From Metabacillus indicus LMG 22858 (GTDB taxonomy: Bacteria > Bacillota > Bacilli > Bacillales > Bacillaceae): DNA of 24,000 bases. How positions within the stretch are numbered: the stretch's first letter is position 1; each line of letters opens with the position of its first letter. A model generated the notes under the pieces. The model did no database searches. It was given only the letters and a program-made list of their open reading frames with translations, and had not been told where the DNA came from. The position numbers and the translations under genes were made by a program. Positions 1,176 through 23,736 of this stretch are shown here, piece after piece. Where the stretch lies: assembly GCF_000708755.2 (NCBI RefSeq), contig NZ_JGVU02000001.1, forward strand, positions 556,694-580,693, written 5' to 3'.

Positions 1176-1250
1176 ACAAATAAATAATCATTTGTTGTAT
1201 TTACACAATATAGAAAATAGTGTAATATTACACCACGAACACAAATGATT
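1176..1250. promoter_or_regulatory. Operator-like inverted repeats overlapping a putative sigma-A promoter in the divergent intergenic region
   Basis: Perfect 14-bp palindrome GTGTAATATTACAC at 1220-1233. Perfect 10-bp inverted repeat AATCATTTGT (1186-1195) / ACAAATGATT (1241-1250) flanks it. A further ACAAAT half-site lies at 1176-1181. Putative -35 TTTACA (1200-1205), 17-nt spacer, -10 TAATAT (1223-1228) for the + strand gene, so the palindrome covers the -10. Confidence 0.4.
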
Positions 1251-1290
1251 GCTTTTCTGTGAAACGTGTACAAAGGAAGGGGCATGTAAG

Positions 1291-5025: not shown

Positions 5026-5069
5026 GGAATCACATCCTTTTATATAGATAAAATAAGGGCAAAAGGCAA

Positions 5070-5101
5070 AAGAAGGATGAAGCTCAGTGCTTATCCTTCT
5101 T
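5070..5101 (-). other. Intercistronic stem-loop between crtP-like and crtQ-like genes
   Basis: AAGAAGGAT (5070-5078) and ATCCTTCTT (5093-5101) form a 9-bp perfect stem with a 14-nt loop. On the minus strand it is followed by TTGCCTTTTGCCCTTATTTTA. It could be a partial terminator, a stabiliser or a processing site. Confidence 0.4.
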
Positions 5102-5107
5102 GCATGT

Positions 5108-6628
5108 TCAGGAAATTTCTTTGTCTTGATTGATTTGAGGCTTTTTGTCTTCATGTTCTGCTATTAAATCTGCGGTCAGCTGTCCGGATAGGGTGACCAT
5201 TGGCACTCCGCCGCCCGGATGGGTGGATCCTCCGACAAAATACAGATTCTCAAGCAGCGTGCTTTTGCTCGGGATTTTAAATCCTCCATTTTTCTTCCGG
5301 TCTGTAGCAACTCCGTAAATCGAGCCGCCGTTCGCTCCGTATAAACTTTGAAGGTCGTTTGGTGTAAACGTATATTCAAATTCAATATGCTCTCTCAACC
5401 CGGTCATCCCCATGCGCTCAAGCTTATCAAGGATTTGTGCCCGGTACGTTTCTTTTCTGAATTCCCAGTTCTCACCCTCCTTAAGAGGAGGAACATGAGT
5501 AAGAACAAACAAGTTTTCTTTTCCGGAAGGTGCCTGAGTCGGATCGGATTTTGCCGAAATGCCGACATAAACCGTCGGGTCATCTGCAAGCTTGCCTTCA
5601 TTAAAAATCTGATGAAATTCTTTTTCAGGATCTTCCGAGAAAAAGAAATTATGATGGGCAAGATTTTCGTATGTCCGGTCTACCCCAAGCAGCATGACCA
5701 GACCTGATACGGTAGGCTCATATTTTTGGAGATCTGACGCCTTCTGGCTGCTGCCGGCTTTGTCTTTAAGAAGCGTATTGTAGGCAGGAATGGCTTCCAG
5801 ATTGGATACCACAATGTCTGCATGAAGGATTCTGCCATCTGCAAGCTCGACGCCGGCTGCTCTTGAGCCCTCAGTGACAATACGTTCTGCCTTTGTGTTC
5901 AGCAGAATGTCAGCACCTAGTTCATGAAGCAGTTTGTTCATGGCCAGTGCAATGTTGTACATGCCGCCTTCAACGTAGTAGACGCCAAGCCCGAGCTGCA
6001 CATGAGTCAGCTGCGAAAGAACGGCAGGGGCATGGTAAGGTGAAGAGCCTATGTACATAATCAGAAAATTGAACAGCTGTCTGATTTTCTTGTTTTTAAA
6101 ATGTTTGCGTGTGACGCCGTCCATTGATTTCAGCGGTTCCATCATCAGCAGTTCCTTCACGCTGTGAAGAGAGCGGAGGTCATTCAGGCCGGATAGGCTT
6201 TTGCTGTAAAAGCTCTTCATGCTGTATTCATACATTTTACTGCAATACTGCAGGTAATCAAAGAATTCGTTTGCATCTTCTTCGGAAACTTTTTTCAGTT
6301 CCTCAAGCATAACAGGCAAATCGCTTGTTAAATCAATCGTTGTCCCGTCTTCATAGAATGTTCTCCAGCCCGGCTCAATCCTTTTAATGGTCAGGTAATC
6401 TGATAGATTCCGCCCGGCGCTTTTAAATAATTTTTCAAGCACCCAGGGCATTGTCAAAATAGACGGTCCTGTATCAAAGGTATAGCCGAGTCCGCCGCGC
6501 ATATTAAGCTTGCCGCCGACACGTTCTCCTTTCTCCACTACTGTGACATGATAGCCGTCTGAACGGAGCCTGATAGCCGCTGACAGCCCGCCAAGCCCGC
6601 CGCCGATAATGACTGCTTTCTTATTCAT
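5108..6628 (-). CDS. crtP: CrtN/CrtP-family FAD-dependent C30 carotenoid desaturase/oxygenase (4,4'-diaponeurosporene oxygenase CrtP-like)
   Basis: 506 aa with SD AAGGAGGG upstream. Dinucleotide fold VIIGGGLGGLSAAIRL. Blocks GPSILTMP, DYLTIKR, DGTTIDL, LAHHNFFF, DDPTVY, ILDKLERMGMTGLR and NLYFVGGSTHPGGGVPMVTLSG match my memory of S. aureus CrtP. I cannot separate CrtP from the CrtNb/CrtNc sub-functions by eye. Confidence 0.8.
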   Translation of the reverse strand: MNKKAVIIGGGLGGLSAAIRLRSDGYHVTVVEKGERVGGKLNMRGGLGYTFDTGPSILTMPWVLEKLFKSAGRNLSDYLTIKRIEPGWRTFYEDGTTIDLTSDLPVMLEELKKVSEEDANEFFDYLQYCSKMYEYSMKSFYSKSLSGLNDLRSLHSVKELLMMEPLKSMDGVTRKHFKNKKIRQLFNFLIMYIGSSPYHAPAVLSQLTHVQLGLGVYYVEGGMYNIALAMNKLLHELGADILLNTKAERIVTEGSRAAGVELADGRILHADIVVSNLEAIPAYNTLLKDKAGSSQKASDLQKYEPTVSGLVMLLGVDRTYENLAHHNFFFSEDPEKEFHQIFNEGKLADDPTVYVGISAKSDPTQAPSGKENLFVLTHVPPLKEGENWEFRKETYRAQILDKLERMGMTGLREHIEFEYTFTPNDLQSLYGANGGSIYGVATDRKKNGGFKIPSKSTLLENLYFVGGSTHPGGGVPMVTLSGQLTADLIAEHEDKKPQINQDKEIS

Positions 6629-6795
6629 CGAAAACCCTCCTTATGAAATTCTTCTAATTTGACTAAACTAATGACCAGTCTTTACAGACATCCATTCTGC
6701 CCTGAAAAGCTTGTTTTAAACCAGTTTTGCAGGAGAATGGTGGGCTGTCCGCATGGAGGCGGGACGGATCATTCCATTAGGAAAGTGTGATGTGC

Positions 6796-7881
6796 ATGTT
6801 TACGATTACAGCCGGTATAGCTGCCGGCGTATATCTTCTATACAGAATTCAGACTCTTGAAAAGCAAAACAGAGATACAAATTCTCTCCGCAGGCTTTCA
6901 ATTATTATTCCTGCAAGAAATGAAGAACAGAATATCGGCAGACTGCTGCATTCGCTGAAAGGCCAATATCCAGCCGAAATCCTTGTTGTCGATGATGGTT
7001 CAGAAGACAAAACGGCCGAGATTGCGGCTGCATGCGGAGCAGAAGTCATGCATGCGGAGGAACCTCCGGAAGGTTGGCTCGGAAAATCATGGGCATGCTT
7101 TTCGGGGGCAAAGAAAGCTAAAGGAGAGTGGCTCATGTTTCTTGATGCAGATACTTTCTTTGAGGAGTTTGGCGCGGAAAAAACGGCCGCTGCCTTTCTT
7201 GATCAGGGAGCTTCCGGAATTCTGTCCATTCATCCGTATCACAGCATACAAAAGCCATACGAATCACTTTCTGCTTTTTTCCACTTGGCAGCTTTTTCGG
7301 CAATGGGCGCTTTTCGTTTCCTTCAGAGAAAAGGTGTTTCATACGGTGCGTTTGGACAGTGCATGATCTGTACAAAACAAGATTATTTTAATTGGGGCGG
7401 CCACGGCCTCATAAAAGACAAAGTCGCAGAAAATATGGAACTTGCCGTCCTTGTAAGCCGGACTGGAGCACCTGTCCGCTGCATGAGCGGAAAAGGCGCT
7501 CTTTCAATGAGAATGTATCCGGAAGGTCCCGCATCTCTTGTTGCCGGCTTTTCAAAAACATTTGCAAGCGGAGCGAAGGCAACAAATTGGAAGGTTCTGC
7601 TTCCATTTGTGCTCTGGATAGCCGGATGTTTATCCTTTTTGACTGAATTCCGGCTGGGTGAGTGGCGGGAGGTATATGCTCTTCTTTATGCTGCTGCTGT
7701 TCTGCATATTTGGATGACGGTAAGAAAGATTGGTTCTTTCGGCATCATCACCGCTCTGTTCTTTCCTTTTCATGCAGGTTTTTTCATGCTTGTTTTCATC
7801 ACATCATTTTGGAGGACCTTCATCAGCAAATCAGCATCATGGAAAGGGAGAAAAATTATTGTAAAGGAAGATGCTAAGTGA
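6796..7881 (+). CDS. Second membrane-anchored family-2 glycosyltransferase, paralogous in architecture to CrtQ
   Basis: ORF 6787..7881. ATG 6796 has the best spacing to SD AGGAAAG (6779-6785); alternatives are GTG 6787 and ATG 6790. Motifs LSIIIPARNEE, VVDDGSED, PEGWLGKSWAC, MFLDADT, plus C-terminal TMs. Its TGA overlaps the GTG of the next gene. Confidence 0.7.
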   Translation: MFTITAGIAAGVYLLYRIQTLEKQNRDTNSLRRLSIIIPARNEEQNIGRLLHSLKGQYPAEILVVDDGSEDKTAEIAAACGAEVMHAEEPPEGWLGKSWACFSGAKKAKGEWLMFLDADTFFEEFGAEKTAAAFLDQGASGILSIHPYHSIQKPYESLSAFFHLAAFSAMGAFRFLQRKGVSYGAFGQCMICTKQDYFNWGGHGLIKDKVAENMELAVLVSRTGAPVRCMSGKGALSMRMYPEGPASLVAGFSKTFASGAKATNWKVLLPFVLWIAGCLSFLTEFRLGEWREVYALLYAAAVLHIWMTVRKIGSFGIITALFFPFHAGFFMLVFITSFWRTFISKSASWKGRKIIVKEDAK

Positions 7882-8414
7882 TCTTTCTGACAGGTGCAGA
7901 GGCGGTGGCCTTGAACATAGCGGCATGGGTGGGCATCCACCTTTCAGTTTCTTTGCTGACAAGCAGGATGGACGGCCGCTCCATTTGCCGGTTTAACTGG
8001 ATGTGGAGTGAAAAAACCGTTGAGAAAAGCGGCAAACTTTATGAACGGCTGCTGATAAAAAGATGGAAAGACAGAATGCCTGAAGCTGGCGGTTTGTTTC
8101 CGGGCGGCATGTCAAAAAAACACCTGCATGCGGCAAAAGACATGGAACGTTTCTTCCTTGAGACAAAAAGGGGAGAGCTGTCCCACTGGATGCAGCTGTT
8201 TGCCTTTCTGCTGTTTTTTATTTGGAATACTCCTGGTTCAGTTCTTATCAATGGACTGTATGCAGCCTGCTTCAATTTGCCGTTTATCATGATTCAGCGG
8301 TATAACAGGATTCGTCTGAACCGGGCATTATCTAAAAGAAAGATGAAAAAAAGTCATACTCCGGCGGAGGAGGTCAAACCGCCTTCTTTAAGTTCTGATG
8401 AAATTGGCGTATGA
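7878..8414 (+). CDS. crtO: Glycosyl-4,4'-diaponeurosporenoate acyltransferase CrtO-like
   Basis: 178 aa. GTG 7878 overlaps the upstream TGA (GTGA), with SD AAAGGAAGA at 7862-7870. ETKRGELSHWMQL and FIMIQRYNRIRL match my memory of S. aureus CrtO (ETKRAEFIHW, IIVQRYNRPRL). Confidence 0.75.
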   Translation: MIFLTGAEAVALNIAAWVGIHLSVSLLTSRMDGRSICRFNWMWSEKTVEKSGKLYERLLIKRWKDRMPEAGGLFPGGMSKKHLHAAKDMERFFLETKRGELSHWMQLFAFLLFFIWNTPGSVLINGLYAACFNLPFIMIQRYNRIRLNRALSKRKMKKSHTPAEEVKPPSLSSDEIGV

Positions 8415-13383: not shown

Positions 13384-13414
13384 GAAACCTGATCATAATT
13401 GGTCAGGTTTTTTA
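13384..13414 (+). terminator. Rho-independent terminator
   Basis: GAAACCTGATC (13384-13394) pairs with GGTCAGGTTTT (13401-11), two of the pairs being G-U. 6-nt loop and a T-run. Confidence 0.7.
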
Positions 13415-13559: not shown

Positions 13560-14792
13560 ATGAAGCCATTTTTATTGTTTTTAGTTCTGTTAGTAGCGGC
13601 AGCCGGATGCTCCCAGTCGTCTGCTCAAAATGAAAACCGGGAGTCACTTGATCAATCATGGGAAGAGATTGAAAACAAAGCAGATGGAACGACAGTCAGA
13701 ATGTTTATGTGGGGCGGTGACGAGGGAATTAACCAGTACATTGACGACTGGGCTGCACCGAGGCTTAAAGAACAATATGGACTGACCCTTGAACGGGTTC
13801 CGATGGACGCCCCTGAATTTCTTCAAAAGCTCCTGAACGAGAAAAAGGCGGGAGAAAACAAAGGTTCAACAGATATTATCTGGATCAACGGCGAAAACTT
13901 TAAAAACGCCAAAAACAGTGATCTTCTGTACGGGCCATTCACAGAAAAGCTTCCGAACTTCAAAAATCATATCAACGGGGATGCTCTTGATATTCAGTAT
14001 GATTTCGGTGAAAAAACAGAAGGTCTTGAAGCGCCGTGGGGCAAGGTGCAGTTTGTTTTTCACTATGACGGGGCGAAGGTGAAGGATCCTCCGGCATCAC
14101 TTGAAGAACTTAAGAAATGGGCAGAGGATAATCCCGGAAAGTTCACGTACCCCGATGCAAATGAATTCACGGGAAATGCATTTTTAAGGCATGTTTTCTA
14201 TGAGTCGGGAGGAGGAGCAGACCTGTTTTTAAAAGAGGGTTTTGATGAAGAACTTGCTGCCTCATCAAGCTCTGATATGTGGACGTATCTGAATGATCTG
14301 AAACCATCTCTATGGAAAAAGGGAGCTACTTACCCGAATACGCTGACAGAGCTTGACAGACTGTACAGCAGCGGGGAAGTGTGGATGACAATGGGCTACA
14401 ACGAAGCAAGAGCGGAAAGCTTAATCGAAAAAGGAATTTTCCCTGAAACGACAAAATCATTCGTGCTTGATTCCGGGTCACTCGGAAACACTCATTTTCT
14501 TGGCATTCCATTTAACACTCAAAACCCGGAAGGCGCTATGACGGCCATTAACTTCTTCATGTCTCCGGAAGCTCAGCTTGCGAAGTATGACAGCACATAT
14601 TGGGGAGAGGGAATGGCTGTTGATCCAGAAACATTTAACGAGGAGCAAAAGAAGAAGTTTAATGACATCGAAAGGGGACAGTCAGTGCTCCCTCAGGATG
14701 TGCTCCAAAAAGCGCTTGTTCCTGAAGTGGACGCACAATATGTGGACTGGTTAAAGGAGAATTGGCTGAATGAAGTGGCAGGAAAGAAATAG
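13560..14792 (+). CDS. ABC transporter substrate-binding lipoprotein, YnjB-like (ligand unknown)
   Basis: 410 aa with SD AAAGGAGG. Lipobox VAAAGC. The size and the downstream fused permease resemble the E. coli YnjB/YnjC arrangement (from memory). Confidence 0.7.
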   Translation: MKPFLLFLVLLVAAAGCSQSSAQNENRESLDQSWEEIENKADGTTVRMFMWGGDEGINQYIDDWAAPRLKEQYGLTLERVPMDAPEFLQKLLNEKKAGENKGSTDIIWINGENFKNAKNSDLLYGPFTEKLPNFKNHINGDALDIQYDFGEKTEGLEAPWGKVQFVFHYDGAKVKDPPASLEELKKWAEDNPGKFTYPDANEFTGNAFLRHVFYESGGGADLFLKEGFDEELAASSSSDMWTYLNDLKPSLWKKGATYPNTLTELDRLYSSGEVWMTMGYNEARAESLIEKGIFPETTKSFVLDSGSLGNTHFLGIPFNTQNPEGAMTAINFFMSPEAQLAKYDSTYWGEGMAVDPETFNEEQKKKFNDIERGQSVLPQDVLQKALVPEVDAQYVDWLKENWLNEVAGKK

Positions 14793-16425
14793 GCTGAAGC
14801 CTGCCGTCCCCGCAGTCCTGTTTACCTTGTTGATGGTTTTTGCAGGACTGTGGCTTGCTGCGGCTGAGAGCTTAACGGCGCCTGATGGAGCGAAAAGCCT
14901 GTCAGCGTATCAAGATCTTTTTACTAATGAGTCTTTCAGGGACTCATTATTTTATAGTCTGAAAATCACCCTGCTGTCGACAGTCATCTCTATTTTGGCA
15001 GGGCTATTGATTATCAGGTCTGTCTATCCGCTTTTGAAAAATAGATATCTAAAGCTTGCTGCATGGATTCCAATGCTTTTCCCCCATTTTGTATGGGGGT
15101 ATATGCTGTTTTTACTTTTATCACAGAACGGGTGGATTTCATCCATTTCAACAGAACTGGGACTGATCTCTTCAACAGGCGCTTTTCCTGATTTTATGAA
15201 AGATTCAGAAGGGACCGGCATTATTCTCACGTATGTTTGGAAAGAGATTCCGTTCGTTCTTCTCATCCTTCTTCCTGTCTATCTGCAGCTGAATACGGGA
15301 CGCAAAGATGCTGTGTATACTCTCGGAGGCAATGAATGGGATGCTTTTAAACTGGTGGAATGGCCGGTGCTCATCCCGAGTCTAATTGAAATCTTTATCC
15401 TTTTGTTTTCCTTTATTTTTGCAGCCTACGAAGTGCCTGCTCTGCTTGGGACGACTTACCCGAAAATGGTTTCTGTTTTAACTTATGAGTGGTTTTATTC
15501 GGGCGACTGGAGCAGAAGACCGGCTGCATTTGCGGTTATGATTCTCTCGACTGCTGTCATTCTGGCAGCTCTGGCAGCTGTTTACCTTCTATTCAATAAG
15601 CAAAGAGAAAGAATAACCAGGTCCAGTACGGTGGAAAGCGTCCGACACGGCAGCGGGTCCCGTCCTGTGATGGCCGTTCTGCTGATACTGTTTACAGCCC
15701 CGGTGTTATTCGTTATAGCAAAAAGCATGACATCCGGATGGACGGGACTGTTTCCGGAAACTTTCTCAGTAAGAGGATACGCTTTATTGATGGATGAGCC
15801 AAAACTGGCAGAAGCTTTGTCTCAGTCCATCACGATAGCCGTCTGTGTGATTGTTTTGAACCTGCTGCTTGGCATACCGGCTGCCCAGGTTCTTGCCCAC
15901 CATTCTTTTAAAGGGAAATCAGCAGCAGAAACGCTGCTGCTTACACCTGTCATTGTCCCGGTTCTGGCCATCGCAATGGGACTTCATACAGTGTTTATCC
16001 AGGCAGGCTTGGCCGGGTCGCTTTCAGGTGTCATCCTGATCCACCTTCTCCCGACTCTGCCCTACACCATCAAGGTAATGCGTTCAGGATTTGAGAGAGC
16101 GGGAGTTTTGACGGGCGAACAGGCTGCTCTGCTTGGAGCCGGCAGGTTGAAAGTGTTTTACACCATTTATTTTCCTCAGCTGATTCCGTCCATACGAAGC
16201 GTTATTTTTTTGGCATCCACCATCTCCCTGAGCCAGTATTTACTTACAGCTCTAATAGGAGGCGGAAATGTACTTACACTTGCAGGTCTGTATTTTCCTT
16301 ACTTCAGCAGTGCAGATGACACGGTGATTGCGAGTTTCTCTCTGCTGTTTGCCATCCTTCCGATTGGGATCTGGCTGTTGTTTGAAGGGCTGCTTCGCTT
16401 AGTAACTCCATATCAGAAAAGGTGA
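14770..16425 (+). CDS. ABC transporter permease, fused two-domain type (YnjC/ThiP-like)
   Basis: 551 aa. ATG 14770 with SD AAGGAGA (14754-14760), overlapping the SBP gene by 23 nt. About 12 hydrophobic segments. Two EAA-like loops: DAVYTLGGNEWDAFKLVEWPVLIP and EQAALLGAGRLKVFYTIYFPQLIP. Confidence 0.8.
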   Translation: MKWQERNRLKPAVPAVLFTLLMVFAGLWLAAAESLTAPDGAKSLSAYQDLFTNESFRDSLFYSLKITLLSTVISILAGLLIIRSVYPLLKNRYLKLAAWIPMLFPHFVWGYMLFLLLSQNGWISSISTELGLISSTGAFPDFMKDSEGTGIILTYVWKEIPFVLLILLPVYLQLNTGRKDAVYTLGGNEWDAFKLVEWPVLIPSLIEIFILLFSFIFAAYEVPALLGTTYPKMVSVLTYEWFYSGDWSRRPAAFAVMILSTAVILAALAAVYLLFNKQRERITRSSTVESVRHGSGSRPVMAVLLILFTAPVLFVIAKSMTSGWTGLFPETFSVRGYALLMDEPKLAEALSQSITIAVCVIVLNLLLGIPAAQVLAHHSFKGKSAAETLLLTPVIVPVLAIAMGLHTVFIQAGLAGSLSGVILIHLLPTLPYTIKVMRSGFERAGVLTGEQAALLGAGRLKVFYTIYFPQLIPSIRSVIFLASTISLSQYLLTALIGGGNVLTLAGLYFPYFSSADDTVIASFSLLFAILPIGIWLLFEGLLRLVTPYQKR

Positions 16426-16430
16426 TCGGT

Positions 16431-17417
16431 TTGAATCAAGGAATAGAACTATGCGCGTTAACAAAAATGTATAAGCAAAAGCCTGTTTTTGACAGGATGG
16501 ACTTGACCATACACAAAGGGGAAATTGTTTCACTGGTCGGTCCTTCGGGGACGGGAAAAACGACTTTACTGCGGTGCATTGCAGGACTTGAGACGCTGGA
16601 TGAGGGTGAAATTAAGATTAACGGAGAGAATGTAACCTGGAGTAAACCCCAGAAACGTCCGGTCGTCATGATGTTTCAGCAGCCGCTGCTTTTTTCGCAT
16701 ATGACGGTATTTGAAAATGTTGAGTACGGGTTAAAGGCAGCTAAAAAGAAAAACCGGCGGGAACAGGTCGCTGCGATGCTTGAAAAAGTGGATATGTCAG
16801 CTTATTCAGATGCTTATCCAAACGAATTATCAGGCGGCCAGCAGCAAAGGATTTCTCTAGCGAGGGCACTTATCGTGAAACCTGAGCTGATCCTTTTGGA
16901 TGAGCCGTTTTCAAGTCTTGATCCAGAGCTCAGGAAAAAAATGAGGATGTGGGTCAGAAGGCTGCTTAAGGAAGAGGGCATGTCTGCATTATTTGTTACA
17001 CATGATATGGAAGAAGCCATGTACATGGGGGACAGGGCAGCCGTGCTTGCTGACGGAAGGGTTCATCAGGCAGATGTCCCGGAAACCGTCTATCTGCATC
17101 CTAAAACGGTAGCTGCCGCTTCGATCTTCAGTGAAGGGATGATGACCGGCATCGGCTCCTTTGTGCACATCAGCAACCTGAGACTTGCTGTCGATAAGAA
17201 GGAGCAGTATCCATACAGCTATGCTGCTGAAATTGAAGACATTTTCATGAAGCACGGCGTCACTTTCTATACGCTTAAACTGAAAGATGCAAATGATAGA
17301 ATAACCATCCATTCAGATATATTGGCAGGCATCCAGGATTCAGTCTATGTTGAAGTCGTTCATCCGGAACTCATTCAGACGTTTGATCATTCCGAAAAAG
17401 AGGAAGATGCAGGATGA
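16431..17417 (+). CDS. ABC transporter ATP-binding protein with C-terminal regulatory/TOBE-like extension
   Basis: ORF 16422..17417. TTG 16431 is preferred (SD AAAGGTGA 16417-16425); the alternative is GTG 16422, overlapping the permease TGA. Walker A GPSGTGKTT, Q-loop MFQQP, signature LSGGQQQR, Walker B LILLDEPFSSLD, H-loop VTHD. Confidence 0.9.
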   Translation: MNQGIELCALTKMYKQKPVFDRMDLTIHKGEIVSLVGPSGTGKTTLLRCIAGLETLDEGEIKINGENVTWSKPQKRPVVMMFQQPLLFSHMTVFENVEYGLKAAKKKNRREQVAAMLEKVDMSAYSDAYPNELSGGQQQRISLARALIVKPELILLDEPFSSLDPELRKKMRMWVRRLLKEEGMSALFVTHDMEEAMYMGDRAAVLADGRVHQADVPETVYLHPKTVAAASIFSEGMMTGIGSFVHISNLRLAVDKKEQYPYSYAAEIEDIFMKHGVTFYTLKLKDANDRITIHSDILAGIQDSVYVEVVHPELIQTFDHSEKEEDAG

Positions 17418-18067
17418 AAAAGAACAGTGTATGGAAATTGCTTGTCATTGCTGCGGGAGCGGGAGTGCTGCTGTGGATTAACAGCCGTTATCTGAATCTG
17501 CAGCCTAAGACGATCAAGGACTGGATGTTATCCTTCGGGGCAGCTGCACCGCTCCTTTATATCGTTTTATATTCCGTCAGGCCGTTAATTCTTTTTCCGG
17601 CGTCTGTCATGTCCCTTGCAGGCGGCCTTGCTTTCGGCCCCTATCTGGGGACACTGTATACTCTGGCCGGCGCAACAATTGGAGCCGTTGTGGCTTATTT
17701 GGCAGCCGGCACCTTCAAGCTTGACATGTTCAGGAAATCAGATAATCAAAGAATGCAGACACTGAAAAAGCAGCTTGAGCAGAACGGATTTTTCTATGTG
17801 CTTATCCTCAGGCTGATTCCGATTGTCCATTTTGATGCCATAAGCTATGCAGCCGGCATTTCAAAAGTGAGACTTCTTCCATTCGCGGCTGCAACTTTTA
17901 TAGGGGTAATCCCGGGTACATTTGCCTTCACCTTTTTAGGATCAAGCTTTGCCGAAGGGAACGTGCTGCTGCTTGCTGCTGCAGGAGCTGTATTTCTTCT
18001 TTTGATGCTCTTGCCCCTTCTTTTCAGGGAAAAAGTAAAACAGCTGCTTACCAATGAATCGAAATGA
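17414..18067 (+). CDS. TVP38/TMEM64 (DedA-superfamily, SNARE-associated PF09335) membrane protein
   Basis: 217 aa. Its ATG overlaps the ATPase stop (ATGA 17414-17417). Five to six TMs, with LRLIPIVHFDAISYAAGIS typical of the family as I remember it (E. coli YdjX/YdjZ class). Confidence 0.75.
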   Translation: MKKNSVWKLLVIAAGAGVLLWINSRYLNLQPKTIKDWMLSFGAAAPLLYIVLYSVRPLILFPASVMSLAGGLAFGPYLGTLYTLAGATIGAVVAYLAAGTFKLDMFRKSDNQRMQTLKKQLEQNGFFYVLILRLIPIVHFDAISYAAGISKVRLLPFAAATFIGVIPGTFAFTFLGSSFAEGNVLLLAAAGAVFLLLMLLPLLFREKVKQLLTNESK

Positions 18068-18076
18068 GGAAAATGT

Positions 18077-18658
18077 ATGCTTGATACACATGCAAGAAAA
18101 TATGTTCAGCCCATCATCCATCATTCTGCAAAGCGTCTCCTGCGAGCGGGACTCACGGCGAATCAGGTGACGGTTCTGGCTTTTATCATCGGTTCGTCTT
18201 CCGGCTTTTTCGTTTATATCGGACAGCCTTTCTGGGCCTTGGCCGTACTGTGGCTATCCGGATATTTGGATGCCGTTGACGGAACGATGGCGAGGCTGAC
18301 GAAACCTTCAGGATTTGGAACCGTTCTTGATATTACATTTGACAGGGTGGTTGAAATAAGCGTCATCGTAGGCCTTGCGTTTGCGTTTCCTGATGCGCGT
18401 CTTGCCCTTCTGCTGTTGTCGGTTTCTATTATCCTTTCAATGACAATCTTCCTTACAGTAGGGGCCGTCAGCGAAAAACAGGGAGTGAAAACCTTTTATT
18501 ATCAGGCTGGACTGGCTGAGAGGACAGAAGGATTTATTTTGTTTTCTCTTATGATTCTTTTAACTGATCACCTTATTCTAATTACCTATTTATTCTTTGC
18601 AATTGAACTGTTTACAGCCATGCAGAGGCTGAGAGAAGCGAAAACCATTTTGAAGTAG
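18077..18658 (+). CDS. CDP-alcohol phosphatidyltransferase family protein (YnjF-like subfamily, not PgsA-like)
   Basis: 193 aa, 9 nt after the previous stop, with SD GAGGAAAA. Motif DAVDGTMARLTKPSGFGTVLDITFD = D-x2-D-G-x2-A-R-x7-G-x3-D-x3-D. The N-terminus MLDTHARKYVQPIIHH and KTFYYQAGLAERTEG resemble my memory of E. coli YnjF. Confidence 0.8.
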   Translation: MLDTHARKYVQPIIHHSAKRLLRAGLTANQVTVLAFIIGSSSGFFVYIGQPFWALAVLWLSGYLDAVDGTMARLTKPSGFGTVLDITFDRVVEISVIVGLAFAFPDARLALLLLSVSIILSMTIFLTVGAVSEKQGVKTFYYQAGLAERTEGFILFSLMILLTDHLILITYLFFAIELFTAMQRLREAKTILK

Positions 18659-18669
18659 GGGGATCAGAC

Positions 18670-20091
18670 ATGGAATATGACGTAATTGTAATTGGCGGAG
18701 GATCAGGGGGGCTGACGGCTGCTGCAGGCGCTGCAAGCTTTGGGGCGAAGACGGCTTTAATAGAAAAAGAGAAAGCTTTAGGGGGAGACTGCCTTCACGC
18801 TGGCTGTGTTCCTTCTAAAGCTTTTATCGCTGCAGCAAACAAAGTGTACAGCGCTAAAAAAGCAGCAGCCGCGTTCGGACTTACCTCAGGCGGCAAAGCC
18901 GATATGAAAAAAGTGATGGAGTCCGTTCAAAGGGCGATAGCTGTTATTCAGGAGCATGATGATGATGAGCGTTTTGAGAGTCTTGGAATCGATGTGATTC
19001 ACGGCGAGGCCGTTTTTGTCTCAAGTCATGAGGTCAGTGTGGGAGATAACATCCTCAAAGGGAAAAAAATCATTCTTGCAACAGGCTCAAGACCGGCGAT
19101 TCCGGATATTGACGGCATCCGCGATTCCGGCTATTTGACAAACCGGAATGTATTTAATCTGGAGGTTCTGCCTGAAAGTCTTGCCGTTATAGGCGGAGGA
19201 CCGATCGGAGTGGAGCTTGCACAGGCTTTCTCCAGGCTTGGGACCCAAGTAACACTTATTGAAAGGTCCTCATTGCCGCTCTCAAAAGAAGATGATGAGA
19301 TCAGGGAGACCGCAGCCCGCCTGCTAAGTAAGGAATTCACCATTTTAACAGAAGCAGCCATTGAATCAGTGTCTTCTTTTGAAGACAGGAAAGAGCTTGT
19401 GATACGGCAGAATGATGTTCTTAAAACGCTTGAAGTGAGCCATATTCTCGTAGCAGCCGGAAGAAAACCGAACAGTGACGGGCTGAAGCTTGAGACTATA
19501 GGGGTCGAATGCGACGAGAAAGGAGCCGTGAAAGTCAACCGTTCCATGCAGACGAGCGTTCCGCATATTTTCGCCATCGGAGATGTTAACGGAAACCAGC
19601 TTTTTACTCATGCTGCCGGCCTGGAAGGAAAAGGCGTCGTTCAAAAAGCAGTCCTTGGATTGCCGCATACCGTCAAGTATGACAGCATGCCTTGGGTTAC
19701 ATATACGCACCCGGAGATCTTTCATCTTGGCATGACAGAGGATGAAGCGCGGAAAAATTACAGGGATATTGGCGTATACAAGGCTCTCCTCAATGAAGTG
19801 GACAGATTTATAGCCGAAGATGAGACAGAAGGATTTGTGAAAATCATAACGGATAAACACGGCGCTATCTTAGGTGCCCACGCAATAGGAGAGGGAGCGG
19901 GAGACTGGATGCAGCCTGTCGTATATGCCAGTCAGCTCGGGAAAAAAATCGGCGATCTTTCCCAGATGGTTTATCCTTATCCCAACAGGGCAGCAGCTGT
20001 TCAAAAAACGGCGGACCTGTACTGGAGAGAAAAACTTTTTTCAGGCATTGTGCCTAAACTGACAGAAAAATGGATCAAAGTAAAACGCTGA
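18670..20091 (+). CDS. Class-I pyridine nucleotide-disulfide oxidoreductase (dihydrolipoamide dehydrogenase / mercuric reductase-like)
   Basis: 473 aa with SD AGGGGGA. FAD fold VIVIGGGSGGLTAA, redox-active pair GGDCLHAGCVPSK, NAD fold LAVIGGGPIGVELA, FAIGDVNG, and a dimerisation-domain His in GAHAIGEGAGDWM. Confidence 0.85.
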   Translation: MEYDVIVIGGGSGGLTAAAGAASFGAKTALIEKEKALGGDCLHAGCVPSKAFIAAANKVYSAKKAAAAFGLTSGGKADMKKVMESVQRAIAVIQEHDDDERFESLGIDVIHGEAVFVSSHEVSVGDNILKGKKIILATGSRPAIPDIDGIRDSGYLTNRNVFNLEVLPESLAVIGGGPIGVELAQAFSRLGTQVTLIERSSLPLSKEDDEIRETAARLLSKEFTILTEAAIESVSSFEDRKELVIRQNDVLKTLEVSHILVAAGRKPNSDGLKLETIGVECDEKGAVKVNRSMQTSVPHIFAIGDVNGNQLFTHAAGLEGKGVVQKAVLGLPHTVKYDSMPWVTYTHPEIFHLGMTEDEARKNYRDIGVYKALLNEVDRFIAEDETEGFVKIITDKHGAILGAHAIGEGAGDWMQPVVYASQLGKKIGDLSQMVYPYPNRAAAVQKTADLYWREKLFSGIVPKLTEKWIKVKR

Positions 20092-20110
20092 AGAAAAATT
20101 CTTCAGCGTT
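20084..20110. terminator. Bidirectional terminator whose arms contain both convergent stop codons
   Basis: AACGCTGAAGAA (20084-20095) / TTCTTCAGCGTT (20099-20110): a perfect 12-bp inverted repeat. TGA of the + gene is at 20089-20091; TGA of the - gene is the complement of 20103-20105. T-rich flanks on both strands. Confidence 0.75.
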
Positions 20111-21179
20111 TCATCTTTTGCATATATCTTCTGTCAATCCAGTGCTTTATTTTCCAGGGGAAACTGCCGTATAAAGAGTATGTCCCGTATAGCAGAACCC
20201 CCTTTTTATTTCCTGCAGAAAGAATACTCAAATAGCGTTTTTTAGGTTTGAACGGCTTTAGCTTCTGCCCGAGCTGAAATCTCTTGATATTTTTAAACAA
20301 GACTGGAGCCTGCCGGACGGCATATACGCCGTTCTTTGCAAGACCGGGGTATTCCTCAAACGATACACAGTCTCCTGCACCAAAAATATAAGGAAACTGA
20401 ACAGATTGAAGAGTCTTTGAGACAAGCATAAAACCGTTCTCATCGCATGCAATCCCGCTTTCCTTCAGCATGGGATGCGGAGCCGGTCCTGTAAGGATAA
20501 GCGCTGAGTCGAAAGGAATCCTGCTGGTTTCTGTGTGTATTGATTGTAATTTGGCGGATACAGCTGACTGATGGAGAAAGAGCGGGATGTTGTTTTCTTC
20601 AAGCAGGCGTGTCAATCCTTTAGAGATATTTTCAGCTGCAGAAGGTGCTATGCCGCTGTTTGAAAGAATCGTAACATTTGAAAGGAACCCGTTTTTCCTT
20701 CTGTATGCTGATACGGATAATGCAAGCTCCAACCCTGCGATTCCTGCTCCTATAATAACGGGTGAGTCTGCTTCTCTGAATTTTCTCATCTTTTCAGGAA
20801 AGGTATAGGCCGGCTTTATGGAACGGACTGCCGGATGACCTGGAAAAGGGGAATGACTTTCTGACCCGAGGTTCAGGCTGAGCAGGTCAAAAGCCAATTT
20901 TCCCCCTGTTTGCAGAAGAACCTCCTTTTTCAATGGATCAATTCTGACTGCTTCTGCTTTTAAAAACTCCGCACCTGCTCTTCTGCAGAGCGCCTCAATA
21001 CTGAAAGTCAGATCTGCTTCCTCATAAAGCCCCTCTGAAAATCCGGAAAACATGCCGGAGTAAAACTGATATTCAGAAGGAGAAACACATGTGATGCGGC
21101 AATTCCATTTTTCTGATTTAGCTCTCTGAAGGAAGGAAGCGTGAACATGCCCTCCTCCAAGCAGCACCAAATGCTTCAT
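20103..21179 (-). CDS. FAD-dependent pyridine nucleotide-disulfide oxidoreductase family protein (NDH-2/SQR fold; resembles the 'N-terminal to SelD' TIGR03169 family)
   Basis: ORF 20103..21218, trimmed to ATG 21179-21177 (MKHLVLLGGGHVHASF, SD AAGGGGTG). Also YSGMFSGFSEGLY, a second Rossmann fold VIIGAGIAGLELA, and FGAGDC. There is no N-terminal CxxxxC. Confidence 0.7.
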   Translation of the reverse strand: MKHLVLLGGGHVHASFLQRAKSEKWNCRITCVSPSEYQFYSGMFSGFSEGLYEEADLTFSIEALCRRAGAEFLKAEAVRIDPLKKEVLLQTGGKLAFDLLSLNLGSESHSPFPGHPAVRSIKPAYTFPEKMRKFREADSPVIIGAGIAGLELALSVSAYRRKNGFLSNVTILSNSGIAPSAAENISKGLTRLLEENNIPLFLHQSAVSAKLQSIHTETSRIPFDSALILTGPAPHPMLKESGIACDENGFMLVSKTLQSVQFPYIFGAGDCVSFEEYPGLAKNGVYAVRQAPVLFKNIKRFQLGQKLKPFKPKKRYLSILSAGNKKGVLLYGTYSLYGSFPWKIKHWIDRRYMQKMKR

Positions 21180-21202
21180 TTGAACACCCCTTGACCGCAA
21201 TG

Positions 21203-21234
21203 AAAAGCACACGCGCATACAGCGGCGTGTGCAA
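21203..21234 (-). terminator. Leader (attenuator) terminator immediately upstream of the oxidoreductase RBS
   Basis: Minus strand: GCACACGC-CGCTGTATGC-GCGTGTGC followed by TTTTCATT. It ends about 25 nt before ATG 21179, with the SD lying between the terminator and the start codon. Confidence 0.7.
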
Positions 21235-21400
21235 TAAGTAGTTGTAATAGTAGACTGTACTTTTGTGAAAGTCTGATTGTTTCAGCCATGCCGGTACCAC
21301 CTACACGACGTAAGCCCTGCCTCTCAAACGTCCTTGCGGTTCCAAGCCCGCGCCAGCTGGAGTAAGTGAATTCATGATTGGCTGAAATCTTGCCTCTAGC
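21235..21400 (-). promoter_or_regulatory. Candidate riboswitch-like structured 5' leader of unknown class
   Basis: About 165 nt between a putative promoter and the leader terminator. Long-range 9-bp helix TTTCAGCCA (21387-21379) / TGGCTGAAA (21288-21280) encloses ~91 nt. An internal helix GACGT/ACGTC is present. CGTCGTGT can pair 7/8 with the terminator 5' arm ACACGCCG (anti-terminator). I could not match it to any riboswitch class I know. Confidence 0.45.
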
Positions 21401-22089: not shown

Positions 22090-22308
22090 ATGGCAGAAAC
22101 AGTCATTCTTGATTCACAGCTCCGCCTTGTGTTTGATATGGGTCTAAATGAAAAGGGCGAGCCGGCAGTTAAGTACAAAAATTACAACAACATTAAGACA
22201 ACAGCAACGCCTGAACAGCTGCTGCAGGCAGCAGCAGCCATTGCGGAACTGCAGACGGAAACGCTTTTGCATGTTGAACGCAATGATTCTCATCAAGTCA
22301 TGGCGTAA
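22090..22308 (+). CDS. DUF1659-family small protein
   Basis: ORF 22072..22308; ATG 22090 lies 7 nt after the GGAGG core (22078-22082). 72 aa, MAETVILDSQLRLVFDMGLNEKGEP..., which fits my memory of PF07872 and its usual pairing with DUF2922. Confidence 0.65.
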   Translation: MAETVILDSQLRLVFDMGLNEKGEPAVKYKNYNNIKTTATPEQLLQAAAAIAELQTETLLHVERNDSHQVMA

Positions 22309-22344
22309 TGAAAAAACAGCTGGAGGGAAGGAGGTGGGAGGACT

Positions 22345-22560
22345 ATGGCAAAAACACTTGAACTTCATTTTTTAAATGAAGAGGGAAAAATCGTGAAACT
22401 GATGATCGATTCTCCGAAAGAACCTGTTGTGCCCGGTGACGTGTCACTTGCAATGGATGAAATTCTTGCATCCAACGCATTTTTTTCAGCGGGGGGAAAC
22501 TTCATCAGCAAAAAAGGAGGCCGCATCGTTGAGCGCAATGTAGCAGACCTGACGATATAA
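22345..22560 (+). CDS. DUF2922-family small protein
   Basis: 71 aa, with a very strong SD GGAGGGAAGGAGGTGGGAGG at 22322-22341. MAKTLELHFLNEEGKIVKL...; its position downstream of DUF1659 is typical. Confidence 0.65.
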   Translation: MAKTLELHFLNEEGKIVKLMIDSPKEPVVPGDVSLAMDEILASNAFFSAGGNFISKKGGRIVERNVADLTI

Positions 22561-22566
22561 AGATAG

Positions 22567-22607
22567 AGGGCCGGATCCCATGCACGGAGGATCCGGCCCT
22601 TTCCTGT
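22567..22607 (+). terminator. Rho-independent terminator
   Basis: AGGGCCGGATCC (22567-22578) / GGATCCGGCCCT (22589-22600): 12-bp stem, 10-nt loop, then TTCCTGTATT. Confidence 0.7.
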
Positions 22608-22693
22608 ATTCAAATCATGCCGGCTGTTAACAGTTGAAAAAACGTGTTTTCAGTCTTTGTGCAATAAATGATGGAAAAGGAGGAAAACCTAAT

Positions 22694-22834
22694 ATGGAAG
22701 AATGGATTCAAGTAGTGAGTGAAGTCGGATTTCCAATCGTGGTGACGCTCTATTTGCTGCATAGAATTGAAAGTAAACTGGACACTCTGAACAGTACAAT
22801 CCAGATGCTTCCAAATCAGCTGAACAGCAAGTAA
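22694..22834 (+). CDS. YvrJ-family small membrane protein
   Basis: ORF 22634..22834, trimmed to ATG 22694 after AAAGGAGG (22676-22683). 46 aa, MEEWIQVVSEVGFPIVVTLYLLHRIESKLDTL..., which matches the YvrJ (PF12841) pattern as I recall it. Confidence 0.7.
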   Translation: MEEWIQVVSEVGFPIVVTLYLLHRIESKLDTLNSTIQMLPNQLNSK

Positions 22835-22872: not shown

Positions 22873-23736
22873 GTGGATGTTTATGATGACCTGAAAAAGG
22901 GGGAGCGCGGAGCTTGGCTGAGCATCGCATCCTATTTAATTCTGGCAGCGGCAAAACTCTCGATCGGCTATCTTTATTCCTCTCAGGCTCTGCTTGCAGA
23001 CGGCCTGAACAACGGCACGGACGTTATTGCCTCCGCTGCCGTTCTGGTCGGGCTGAAAATCTCCCAGAAGCCGCCGGATAAGGACCACCCGTATGGACAT
23101 TTCAAAGCAGAGGCCATAGCTGCGCTTGTCGCATCTTTTATTATCATGTCAGTGGGGCTTCAAGTATTGTTTGAAGGCTTTAAATCTATTATTGAGCCGA
23201 AAACAGAATCCCCAAGCCTAATTACCGCATGGGCGGCCATTATCAGTGCGGCCATCATGTACGGTGTTTACAGATATAACCGGGCTCTGACTGCAAAAAT
23301 CAACTCCAAAGCTCTCGTTGCCGCCGCCCATGACAACAGATCGGATGCGCTTGTAAGTCTGGGGGCGTTTGCCGGCATTGCAGCCTCTCAGTTTGGGATT
23401 GCGTGGTTTGATACTCTTACAGCCATTACCATTGGGTTTATCATCTGTAAAACAGCATGGGATATCTTTAAAGATACGGCCCATTCTCTGACAGACGGTT
23501 TTGATGACCAGAAGCTTCTCAGCTTTAAATCCACCGTTGAATCAACACCGGGAGTCGACCGAATAAAGGATATTAAAGCAAGGTACCTCGGAAGCAGTGT
23601 TCTTGTTGATGTCGTAATTGAGGTCCATGCCGGATTGAATGTGACTGAAAGCCATGAAATTACAGATCTCGTTGAAAGAAGGATGGAAATGGAACACAAG
23701 ATTTCTCATGTCCATGTTCATATTGAACCATCCTGA
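22873..23736 (+). CDS. Cation diffusion facilitator (CDF) family metal efflux transporter
   Basis: 287 aa, GTG start after AGGAAGTGA. Six TMs, TM2 ALLADGLNNGTD, TM5 AAHDNRSDAL, and a C-terminal cytoplasmic domain ending HVHVHIEP. Confidence 0.85.
   Translation: MDVYDDLKKGERGAWLSIASYLILAAAKLSIGYLYSSQALLADGLNNGTDVIASAAVLVGLKISQKPPDKDHPYGHFKAEAIAALVASFIIMSVGLQVLFEGFKSIIEPKTESPSLITAWAAIISAAIMYGVYRYNRALTAKINSKALVAAAHDNRSDALVSLGAFAGIAASQFGIAWFDTLTAITIGFIICKTAWDIFKDTAHSLTDGFDDQKLLSFKSTVESTPGVDRIKDIKARYLGSSVLVDVVIEVHAGLNVTESHEITDLVERRMEMEHKISHVHVHIEPS

Follow-up and report, generated by a model that had tools for sequence, protein, structure and literature searches.

A mobile seven-gene module joining a YnjBCD-type importer, a TVP38/DedA protein, a YnjF-type transferase and two flavoproteins in Metabacillus indicus: possible salvage of a lipid head group

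Escherichia coli K-12 carries ydjX, ydjY, ydjZ, ynjA, ynjB, ynjC, ynjD and ynjE on one strand, with ynjF adjacent and convergent; an earlier note on the DNA analyzed here had given the content of this locus correctly. Full-text literature searches gave nothing functional on ynjF or ynjBCD, nor on the wider gene set to which they belong. A related set is present in Metabacillus indicus LMG 22858, within a stretch of 24,000 nucleotides (contig NZ_JGVU02000001.1, positions 556,694 to 580,693; hereafter the window). In this study, seven genes of the window were analyzed, encoding a YnjBCD-type ATP-binding cassette (ABC) importer, a TVP38/DedA membrane protein, a YnjF-type CDP-alcohol phosphatidyltransferase and two flavoproteins. 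The seven genes are functionally linked, and they form a module that is conserved, horizontally mobile and rearranged across phyla and conjugative plasmids. Its function is read here, tentatively, as the salvage of a head group into a minor phospholipid.

The E. coli locus resembles that of the window in combining uptake, a DedA protein, phosphatidyl transfer and thiol-type proteins, and the substrate-binding protein (SBP), fused permease, ATPase core, TVP38 protein and transferase are orthologous (34, 23, 37, 32 and 30% identity, respectively). However, the E. coli locus lacks the class-I and FSP1-like flavoproteins and instead has YdjY, the AhpD-like YnjA, the rhodanese YnjE and a second TVP38 protein; furthermore, its transferase gene is convergent and its ATPase has no C-terminal domain. 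Several observations on the E. coli genes have been published: ynjABCD is mildly induced by BaeR overexpression (PMC2731931), under colistin, fitness rises strongly with the ynjC mutation P213S, and deletion of ynjC lowers the uptake of a cationic dye (PMC9184624), and ydjY and ynjE change alongside anaerobic genes in one transcriptome table (PMC9068703). The BaeR, colistin and anaerobic hints are compatible with a role in the envelope, but they are not specific.

The TVP38 protein of the window probably falls in the COG0398 subfamily of DedA proteins. In the parts of the study of Todor et al. (2023; PMC10127716) drawn on here, COG0398 proteins are proposed to be phospholipid scramblases, represent the DedA branch nearest to human TMEM41B and VMP1 and are essential in Caulobacter, and their commonest fusion partner is a flavoprotein of the class-I type; the window flavoprotein is orthologous to this PF07992/PF02852 partner domain. 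Those parts of the study record the fusions, but they hold no mention of the operon or gene neighbourhood of the fusions and give no function for them.

Two further systems bear comparison. The first comprises Pcs with choline uptake and the glycerophosphocholine-acylation route to phosphatidylcholine, which follow the same logic of an external head-group precursor that is joined to CDP-diacylglycerol, or of a glycerophosphodiester that is acylated. In the case of Pcs, imported choline is condensed with CDP-diacylglycerol by an enzyme of the CDP-alcohol family. The window transferase differs in having no sequence membership in Pcs, and the acylation route may be compared with a Deinococcus variant of the module that contains a PlsC-type gene. 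We know of no head-group salvage pathway with a DedA protein and two flavoproteins. The second system is the mer operon and, with it, RclA-type oxidant defence, in which import is likewise coupled to a CxxxxC flavoprotein without an acid–base His, in a likewise plasmid-borne, stress-island context. The mer operon differs in that the window module has no C-terminal Cys pair, NmerA domain, MerT, MerP or MerR.

The genes of the module and the hairpins that delimit them are as follows; the coordinates and junctions are based on an open reading frame (ORF) listing of the window.

13384-13414, +: intrinsic terminator of the chemoreceptor gene upstream, bounding the unit at its 5' end (12-bp stem, U-run, -15.9 kcal/mol, z = -5.5)
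13560-14792, +: YnjB-type substrate-binding lipoprotein, 410 aa, lipobox Cys17 (NF008633/PRK11622, PF13416)
14770-16425, +: fused double permease, YnjC type, 551 aa (two BPD_transp_1 stretches)
16422-17417, +: ABC ATPase with a C-terminal regulatory extension, 331 aa, alternative start 16431 (PF00005, 131 bits)
17414-18067, +: DedA/TVP38 (VTT-domain) membrane protein, YdjX type, 217 aa, no cysteine (PF09335)
18077-18658, +: YnjF-type CDP-alcohol phosphatidyltransferase, 193 aa, nearest to phosphatidylinositol phosphate (PIP) synthases (PF01066)
18670-20091, +: class-I pyridine-nucleotide flavoprotein, 473 aa, C41-x4-C46 pair, MerA/RclA-like active-site variant (Pyr_redox_2 and Pyr_redox_dim)
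20083-20111, both strands: bidirectional terminator between the convergent flavoprotein genes (13-bp stem; -17.0 kcal/mol on +, -20.3 kcal/mol on -; z about -5 to -6.5)
20103-21218, -: NDH-2/FSP1/AIF-like NAD(P)H flavoprotein, 371-aa ORF, probably 358 aa from 21179 (TIGR03169, 258 bits; PDB match FSP1/AIFM2)

The six genes on the + strand are packed tightly between 13560 and 20091. The SBP gene overlaps the permease start (14770) by 23 nt, and the GTG start of the ATPase at 16422 stands inside a GTGA, overlapping by 4 nt the permease gene that stops at 16425; the alternative start at 16431 would leave a 5-nt gap after the permease and a protein of 328 instead of 331 aa. Of the three NCBI annotations for the identical locus, two use the latter start, and the length of the ATPase varies among public annotations of the same sequence (331, 328 and 316 aa). 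An ATGA overlap at 17414-17417 joins the ATPase and TVP38 genes, and gaps of 9 and 11 nt precede the starts of the transferase (18077) and the flavoprotein (18670). All of these junctions had been given in the earlier note and agree with the ORF listing, and its family assignments for the six proteins were upheld by profile searches and BLASTP. Protein identical to that of the window was found in GCA_046603695.1, GCA_016839225.1 and GCA_000709935.2.

Hairpin folding energies were compared with shuffled controls. The two terminators that the earlier note had placed on either side of the block proved to be strong hairpins (z about -5 to -6.5), and sites inside the block are at chance level, with 14 weak terminator-like matches found and 10.5 ± 3.7 expected; these aside, the block contains no further terminator-like site with more than three G-C pairs and a long stem. 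The hairpin at 20083-20111 is placed between the convergent flavoprotein genes and can serve both. No common operator was found 5' of the SBP gene, since 8-mer counts over 79 upstream regions returned A/T-rich words only, and an alignment of five Metabacillus upstream regions, with imprecise start coordinates, was uninformative. That the arrangement is not due to chance follows from its conservation in relatives and not from the window alone.

A genome scan with the transferase alignment found a relative in 482 species, and the 80 closest, all Bacillales with 66-84% identity in the transferase, the best-conserved member of the module, were taken for a census of gene neighbourhoods. These loci were searched with the window proteins (tblastn, E ≤ 1e-8, at least half of the query covered), with thresholds of our own choosing. 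The SBP, ATPase and TVP38 genes are each present in 78 of the 80 loci, the class-I flavoprotein gene in 73 and the gene at 20103-21218 in 61. Clustering of every ORF in the 80 loci, all against all, returned the same seven families, with the permease usually as two genes, and the next most frequent neighbour family was found in only 15 loci; the set is thus conserved and its flanks are not. At least eight gene orders occur among these loci, with flanks that vary around a set that stays. Planococcaceae have the flavoprotein, TVP38, SBP, permease and ATPase genes in one direction and the transferase gene, with the seventh gene directly after it, in the other. In other genera, the seventh gene either follows the class-I flavoprotein gene in the same orientation or is inserted between those for the ATPase and TVP38. 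Four loci of alkaliphiles contain a rhodanese gene and a TVP38 gene that is closer to YdjX, and three of them lack the flavoprotein gene and so have an E. coli-like form.

The unit had been described in the earlier note as one of six genes; it comprises seven, the convergent gene at 20103-21218 being counted in because it is kept in 61 of the 80 loci while the gene order varies. It lies directly behind the transferase gene on the same strand in 18 loci and behind the class-I flavoprotein gene in 13, and orthologues of its product are encoded in the enterobacterial plasmid island described below (29% identity, E = 2e-48) and in Paracoccus (E = 5e-37). The seventh protein scores 258 bits against TIGR03169 ('Nterm_to_SelD'), for which the cut-off is 310 bits, and its matches in the PDB are FSP1/AIFM2 (the best, E = 1e-13), the sulfide:quinone oxidoreductase SQR and NDH-2. 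It has a GDC FAD motif and no conserved Cys pair, the absence of which rules against an SQR function. To judge from its sequence, the simplest reading is that of an NDH-2/FSP1-like reductase that would act on a lipophilic acceptor. In the intergenic region upstream of this gene, and on the opposite strand, an Rfam scan matched the full model of the BsrC small RNA (21295-21381, +; 55 bits, gathering score 38).

Members of the Fusobacteriota, Clostridia, Alpha- and Gammaproteobacteria, Spirochaetota and Actinomycetota, all outside the Bacillales, have the set too, as do conjugative plasmids. When 72,556 plasmids were searched by tblastn, an SBP of this type was encoded in 78 records (E ≤ 1e-30) and a transferase of this type in 66; among the 64 records listed for each, 52 are shared, of which 48 have both genes within 8 kb, compared with about 0.07 shared records expected by chance. 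These counts are not independent, because many of the records represent one island on IncC-type plasmids of cattle-associated enterobacteria. Independent lineages with the set include Ilyobacter and Cetobacterium (Fusobacteriota), Acetoanaerobium (Clostridia), several Rhodobacterales and Rhizobiales, Sphingopyxis, Legionella, Pseudoalteromonas and Catenovulum. In the E. coli IncC plasmid CP063738 (L087, 1-13000), this accessory island holds genes for DoxX, an IS150-interrupted TVP38::flavoprotein fusion and an FSP1-like flavoprotein, together with those for the SBP, fused permease, ATPase and transferase and then an extracytoplasmic function (ECF) sigma factor, an AhpD-like protein and a HAD protein. 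The island is carried on plasmids of E. coli, Klebsiella, Salmonella, Citrobacter and Providencia, in many cases of cattle or milk origin, and is present in only three of 5,426 complete E. coli genomes. Closer to the window, a 362-kb plasmid of Metabacillus dongyingensis (L093, 1-8600) carries a second, paralogous copy of the module (44-53% identity) directly after msrA and msrB.

A search of 1.84 billion cluster representatives gave 362 transferase clusters at E ≤ 1e-10. Nine diverse representatives were looked up, seven of which adjoin module genes. Together with the plasmids and E. coli, these nine make up 19 transferase-anchored contexts outside the core Bacillales, with a TVP38 gene in about 14, a reductase flavoprotein gene in 14, an importer in 14 and none of these in two. 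The earlier note had argued that uptake, a DedA protein, phosphatidyl transfer and redox chemistry constitute a conserved module with no assigned function; the census and the fusions bear this out, with co-occurrence outside close relatives far above chance.

Three kinds of gene fusion tie the families together further. TVP38::class-I flavoprotein fusions of about 710 aa, which the earlier note had mentioned as annotated TVP38::FAD-oxidoreductase fusions, exist in Paracoccus, Sphingopyxis and Catenovulum, with the IS150-split example in the enterobacterial island. Their C-terminal halves share 34-36% identity with the flavoprotein of the window. Ilyobacter polytropus has a rhodanese::TVP38 fusion of 515 aa (L089, 3276-4823), the N-terminal part of which is 27% identical to YnjE and the C-terminal part 33% identical to YdjX. 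The protein P0261 (L099, 4891-6666; 591 aa) is a fusion of the transferase to a YnjB-type SBP through a signal-peptide-like hydrophobic linker; fusions of this type are represented by two sequences from two independent assemblies, and the neighbours of P0261 are two VTT genes and a gene for a C_GCAxxG_C_C redox protein. No description of the transferase::SBP or rhodanese::TVP38 fusions was found in the searches made.

The importer is interchangeable in type, being an ABC system, a phosphotransferase system (PTS), an APC permease or a TonB receptor with a CNT carrier. In Brevinema (Spirochaetota), the operon encodes the transferase, a flavoprotein, PTS IIB, an ascorbate-family PTS IIC (336 bits, cut-off 380), TVP38 and a DUF547 protein. 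A cluster in a metagenome-assembled genome of Actinomycetota encodes a flavoprotein, a radical-SAM protein, the transferase, an APC permease and a methyltransferase, and a Sphingopyxis cluster encodes a TonB receptor, a NupC-like carrier (CNT), the transferase and an AhpD-like protein. The combination of radical-SAM protein and methyltransferase raised the idea of an arsenosugar or arsenolipid, which was rejected as the radical-SAM protein matches no NCBIfam model, ArsS included. In Deinococcus, a gene for a PlsC-type lysophospholipid acyltransferase overlaps the SBP gene at the place of the transferase gene, and in the anaerobes Ilyobacter and Thermosediminibacteraceae a GltD/Hdr-like 'dicluster' flavoprotein and a rhodanese replace the class-I flavoprotein.

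Accessory genes recur as well. Small thiol-redox partners include AhpD-like/YnjA, DCC1-like, thioredoxin, TusA, C_GCAxxG_C_C and DUF547 proteins, together with rhodanese. The DUF547 protein, for which a PDB sequence search gave no solved relative, is found within the module in three distant lineages, namely a Legionella plasmid (L090), Catenovulum (L095) and Brevinema (L109). Further lipid enzymes also occur nearby, with a YiiX-like NlpC/P60 protein encoded in Legionella and a protein of the sterol-desaturase family in Catenovulum. Stress-type neighbours are ECF sigma/anti-sigma genes, msrAB and the genes DUF2282-DUF692-DUF2063-DoxX, the last of which we take to be a metal-stress peptide operon.

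The central enzyme of the module is the transferase. Its motif D65-x2-D68-G-x2-A-R-x7-G81-x3-D85-x3-D89 is intact, and the invariant residues (Asp 65, 68, 85 and 89, with G69, A72, R73 and G81) place it in PF01066. It aligns over its full length with E. coli YnjF (30% identity over 201 columns, E = 6e-19) and has a family-specific loop, K-x-F-Y-Y-x-x-G-L-x-E-x-T-E, in which K138, F140, Y141, Y142, G145, L146, E148, T150 and E151 are invariant, E. coli YnjF included. The full-length similarity, the common loop and the shared association with a ynjB-type gene assign it to the YnjF orthologous group. PIPS, PgsA1 and AIPS are its nearest relatives in sequence and fold and have an identical metal-binding motif: the best NCBIfam matches, both below cut-off, are AIPS (NF040950, 91 bits against 180) and PIPS (NF045883, 70 bits against 170), the PDB sequence match is 6h53 (E = 6e-9), and the all-helical AF2 model (pLDDT 85) superposes on the PIPS of Mycobacterium tuberculosis, M. 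kansasii and Renibacterium with TM 0.72-0.77. The window protein differs from these relatives in the scores under cut-off, in three pocket residues and in the family-specific loop. The acceptor-phosphate pocket of M. tuberculosis PgsA1 is formed by R94, S132, K135, R137, R152, R155 and R195 (PMC6506517). Four of these seven residues are kept in the window transferase (R94 as R90, the critical one, R137 as K134, R152 as R149 and R195 as R184), and the equivalents of S132, K135 and R155 are lost (G129, S132 and G152). The transferase thus resembles PIPS and is nonetheless not a member of the PIPS or AIPS equivalogs. No inositol-phosphate synthase gene is present near the window transferase gene, and to our knowledge inositol lipids have not been found in these Bacillales.

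The earlier note had considered that the 193-aa protein might be an ordinary PgsA, and this does not hold. The protein has no match to TIGR00560 at E ≤ 0.01 (cut-off 109 bits; E. coli PgsA scores 222 bits), it aligns with E. coli PgsA in the motif region only (BLASTP, 22 bits), and its fold match to PgsA (TM 0.58-0.60) is weaker than that to PIPS.

The TVP38 protein scores 94 bits against PF09335 (gathering score 33.9) and is closer to YdjX (32% identity, E = 8e-24) than to YdjZ (25%) in BLASTP; against the UptA models it reaches merely 27-31 bits, with cut-offs of 250-300. It is homologous to the N-terminal half of the TVP38::flavoprotein fusions and to the C-terminal half of rhodanese::TVP38.

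The three importer proteins have the features of a type I ABC importer, namely an SBP with a lipobox, two BPD_transp_1 stretches and a PF00005 ATPase. The SBP is a member of the curated YnjB type (COG4134), matching NF008633/PRK11622 over residues 10-405 of 410 with 462 bits (cut-off 203), and is 34% identical to E. coli YnjB (BLASTP, E = 6e-72); its lipobox reads ...AAAGC, with Cys17 invariant. Some sources label this protein 'putative spermidine/putrescine'. A PDB sequence search gave no match, and a profile search gave only weak PotD/SpuD tails. In twelve phylum-spanning sequences, only W, F, D, E, N and Q residues are invariant, and R, K and H are absent from this group. Because these invariant residues are aromatic, acidic or amide and none is basic, a neutral or cationic polar ligand (a sugar, polyol or amine) would fit better than an oxyanion. 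The permease is 23% identical to YnjC over 508 aa (BLASTP, E = 4e-17) and is similar over its full length to the fused ThiP and PhnU2 permeases. The YnjBCD-type importer with a fused permease proposed in the earlier note is found here, with both BPD_transp_1 halves in one protein, but it is not the general form: the permease is encoded by two separate genes in 67 of the 80 Bacillales loci and is fused in a minority of 11. The ATPase core is 37% identical to YnjD (BLASTP, E = 6e-35), and its extension is MalK/UgpC-like, with a UgpC-type alignment that extends to residue 318 and a TOBE_2 domain in one relative.

The class-I flavoprotein is orthologous (34-39% identity) to the reductase half of the TVP38 fusions. 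Its best NCBIfam match is NF004991 (445 bits, under the cut-off of 620), all equivalog models being below cut-off, and its best sequence match in the PDB is MerA (5x1y), followed by lipoamide dehydrogenases. Among 81 orthologues, the only invariant Cys and His residues are C41, C46 and H314. The position of the His-Glu dyad reads Y-P-Y-P-N-R in the window protein and H-x-Y-P-T-x-[SA]-E in the proteobacterial orthologues; with Tyr in place of the catalytic His, the window protein does not fit the glutathione/lipoamide reductase pattern (H-P-T-x-x-E). MerA, we presume, likewise has Tyr at this position. The score against the MerA model TIGR02053 is 354 bits (cut-off 454), with no HMA domain, that against RclA is 222 bits (cut-off 740), and no orthologue inspected has a Cys in its C-terminal 60 residues. 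On these sequence grounds, the protein is neither a canonical disulfide reductase nor MerA, and the label 'disulfide reductase' given in the earlier note is not established, the acid-base His being replaced as in MerA-type enzymes. Possible C-terminal amphipathic anchors in both flavoproteins (hydrophobic moments of 0.44 and 0.39, compared with protein means of 0.25 and 0.20) are suggestive and were not used as evidence.

The mechanism that we prefer, at somewhat less than an even chance, is the salvage of a head group into a minor phospholipid that is redistributed by the DedA protein and kept reduced by the two flavoproteins. The YnjBCD-type ABC importer would bring in an exogenous polar compound bearing a hydroxyl group, a task that would fall to a PTS, an APC permease or a TonB-receptor/CNT pair in other lineages. 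The YnjF-type transferase would join the imported compound with CDP-diacylglycerol on the inner side of the membrane, giving a minor specialized phospholipid, which the YdjX-type DedA/TVP38 protein would redistribute across the bilayer. The two NAD(P)H flavoproteins would act at the membrane surface and maintain in reduced form a redox-active function that belongs to the head group or to the lipid immediately around it. This function is probably sulfur-based, and the role of the whole is likely to be protection of the envelope under oxidative, metal or similar stress.

Each step draws on separate observations. That the substrate is imported for the pathway is suggested by the swapping of the importer while the rest of the set stays and by the fusion of the SBP to the transferase. 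A lipid destination is suggested by the PIPS-like transferase of the CDP-diacylglycerol type, by the absence of a cytidylyltransferase gene from every module cluster examined, by the acyltransferase of Deinococcus and by the DedA partner. An NAD(P)H-driven and probably sulfur-related membrane redox function is suggested by the flavoprotein::DedA and rhodanese::DedA fusions and by the thiol-redox accessories. The importer swapping and the Deinococcus acyltransferase can be taken as indirect support for the mechanism.

A number of points weigh against head-group salvage. The members of the module have no known ligand, lipid or enzymatic activity. The ligand of the SBP could not be named from solved structures, since the Foldseek neighbours of its AF2 model (pLDDT 90.8), namely PhnS, PotD/SpuD, FutA, TbpA, AfuA and sugar binders, have about 16% identity and very different ligands. 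E. coli YnjF lacks the basic pocket residues R90 and R149, so that the acceptor pocket is not uniform in the family. The acid-base His is absent from the class-I flavoprotein, which may therefore act on a metal ion or an oxidant and not on a lipid disulfide. The module loci share no conserved kinase or phosphatase dedicated to a phosphorylated intermediate. Two of the nine transferase relatives that were looked up, P0283 and P0316, stand alone. Conversely, ABC systems without the transferase occur in Peptoclostridium acidaminophilum (L096, 6984-11925), beside a nucleoside hydrolase gene, and in Chondrinema (L098, 4899-12443), beside a TonB receptor and a radical-SAM gene, so that the SBP family may serve more than one pathway. 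Finally, E. coli has the locus, and yet we know of no report of an additional phospholipid in this species.

A more specific form of head-group salvage, which we regard as distinctly improbable, is that the lipid is a redox-active phospholipid with a thiol, persulfide or enediol head group and serves as a shuttle of reducing power across the membrane. The DedA-tethered CxxxxC flavoprotein and the FSP1-like enzyme would reduce the lipid on the cytoplasmic leaflet, and a DedA scramblase would flip it outwards, where oxidants or metals would be quenched at the outer leaflet, in the wall or in the periplasm before the lipid returned. Such a shuttle, if real, would be the lipid-anchored equivalent, in bacteria, of the FSP1/ubiquinol membrane-antioxidant system and would provide the first function for COG0398 DedA proteins, YnjF and YnjBCD.

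Among the alternatives to salvage, the one that survives best, although it is unlikely, is the uptake and reduction of a chalcogen or metal such as thiosulfate/sulfane sulfur, selenite, tellurite, Cu(II) or Hg(II). Here the DedA protein, the ABC system or both would carry the ion inwards, the flavoproteins, with rhodanese in anaerobes, would reduce or transfer it, and the transferase would contribute a secondary remodelling of the membrane. The Tyr at the place of the catalytic His and the closeness of the class-I flavoprotein to MerA in the PDB search are in keeping with this, as are rhodanese, TusA, a TauE exporter and YgfK-like/'diclust_near_Sec' flavoproteins in variants of the module, the occurrence on conjugative plasmids beside ECF-sigma and DUF2282/DUF692/DoxX genes of metal-stress type, and a link between selenite and DedA proteins in the literature. 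Several accessory families, moreover, bear '(seleno)protein' in their NCBIfam names, and the family nearest to the seventh protein is found fused to SelD. However, the flavoprotein has neither a C-terminal Cys pair nor a metal-binding domain and scores under the MerA and RclA cut-offs, and the SBP lacks the invariant basic residue that would be expected of an oxyanion site. The transferase, being the best-conserved member and fused to the SBP, is not peripheral as this alternative would have it, and the ABC system is replaced by PTS, APC and NupC-type carriers, which are not carriers for inorganic ions. A direct link to selenium was rejected, as the seventh gene is under the TIGR03169 cut-off and neither SelD nor any other selenium gene is conserved in the 80 loci; the idea is retained only as part of this chalcogen or metal alternative.

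Two further alternatives are less likely. One, which we consider very improbable, is that the product is a soluble phosphodiester of the compatible-solute type, made from a CDP-activated alcohol and the imported compound in the manner of DIPP synthase, with no lipid involved. DIPP synthase and AF2299 are close relatives of the transferase model in fold (TM 0.71-0.76) and appear among its NCBIfam matches, and halophiles, alkaliphiles and marine organisms are well represented among the bacteria with the module. However, the PIP synthases, which use CDP-diacylglycerol, are nearer relatives, no cluster examined contains a cytidylyltransferase gene for a soluble CDP-alcohol, and the DedA partner, the Deinococcus acyltransferase and the flavoproteins would be left unexplained. 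The other, which deserves marginally less credence still, is a salvage transporter for a cofactor or nutrient (similar to thiamine, a polyamine or a phosphonate) whose operon merely happens to contain unrelated housekeeping genes of membrane and redox function as well: the permease and ATPase are nearest to ThiP/PhnU2/PotA types, the fold neighbours of the SBP include TbpA, PotD and PhnS, its label mentions spermidine/putrescine and the ABC genes stand alone with a nucleoside hydrolase or radical-SAM gene in some relatives, but the linkage survives at least eight rearrangements, phylum jumps and three kinds of fusion, all equivalog scores are far under cut-off, and the Rfam scan, in which the BsrC match elsewhere in the window was the sole result, gave no riboswitch in the window, the lack of a thiamine pyrophosphate riboswitch weakening the thiamine idea in particular.

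The present analysis places YnjBCD, YnjF, YdjX/YdjZ and the COG0398 branch of DedA in one module with defined membership, fusions and importer swaps, a module that has spread on conjugative plasmids of livestock-associated enterobacteria. If head-group salvage into a lipid is correct, the module would add a new class of phospholipid in bacteria and would connect membrane lipids with redox defence in a new way. A bearing on polymyxin tolerance is possible in view of the ynjC mutation (PMC9184624).

Further features of the window lie on both sides of the module.

1249-3435, +: 728-aa membrane protein with DUF2157 and a C-terminal GDYXXLXY domain
3910-5154, -: family-2 glycosyltransferase, carotenoid glycolipid set
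5108-6628, -: amine-oxidase/CrtN-P-like desaturase, carotenoid glycolipid set
6787-7881, +: family-2 glycosyltransferase, carotenoid glycolipid set
7878-8414, +: CrtO acyltransferase, carotenoid glycolipid set
22090-22834, +: three small genes, DUF1659, DUF2922 and YvrJ (from the annotation of the identical locus)
22873-23736, +: cation-diffusion-facilitator gene, after the DUF1659/DUF2922/YvrJ genes

The genes between 3910 and 8414, 5 kb upstream of the module, apparently direct the synthesis of a C30 carotenoid glycolipid, which is another membrane-antioxidant lipid system. Their proximity may be incidental, because the flanks of the module are not conserved in other genera.

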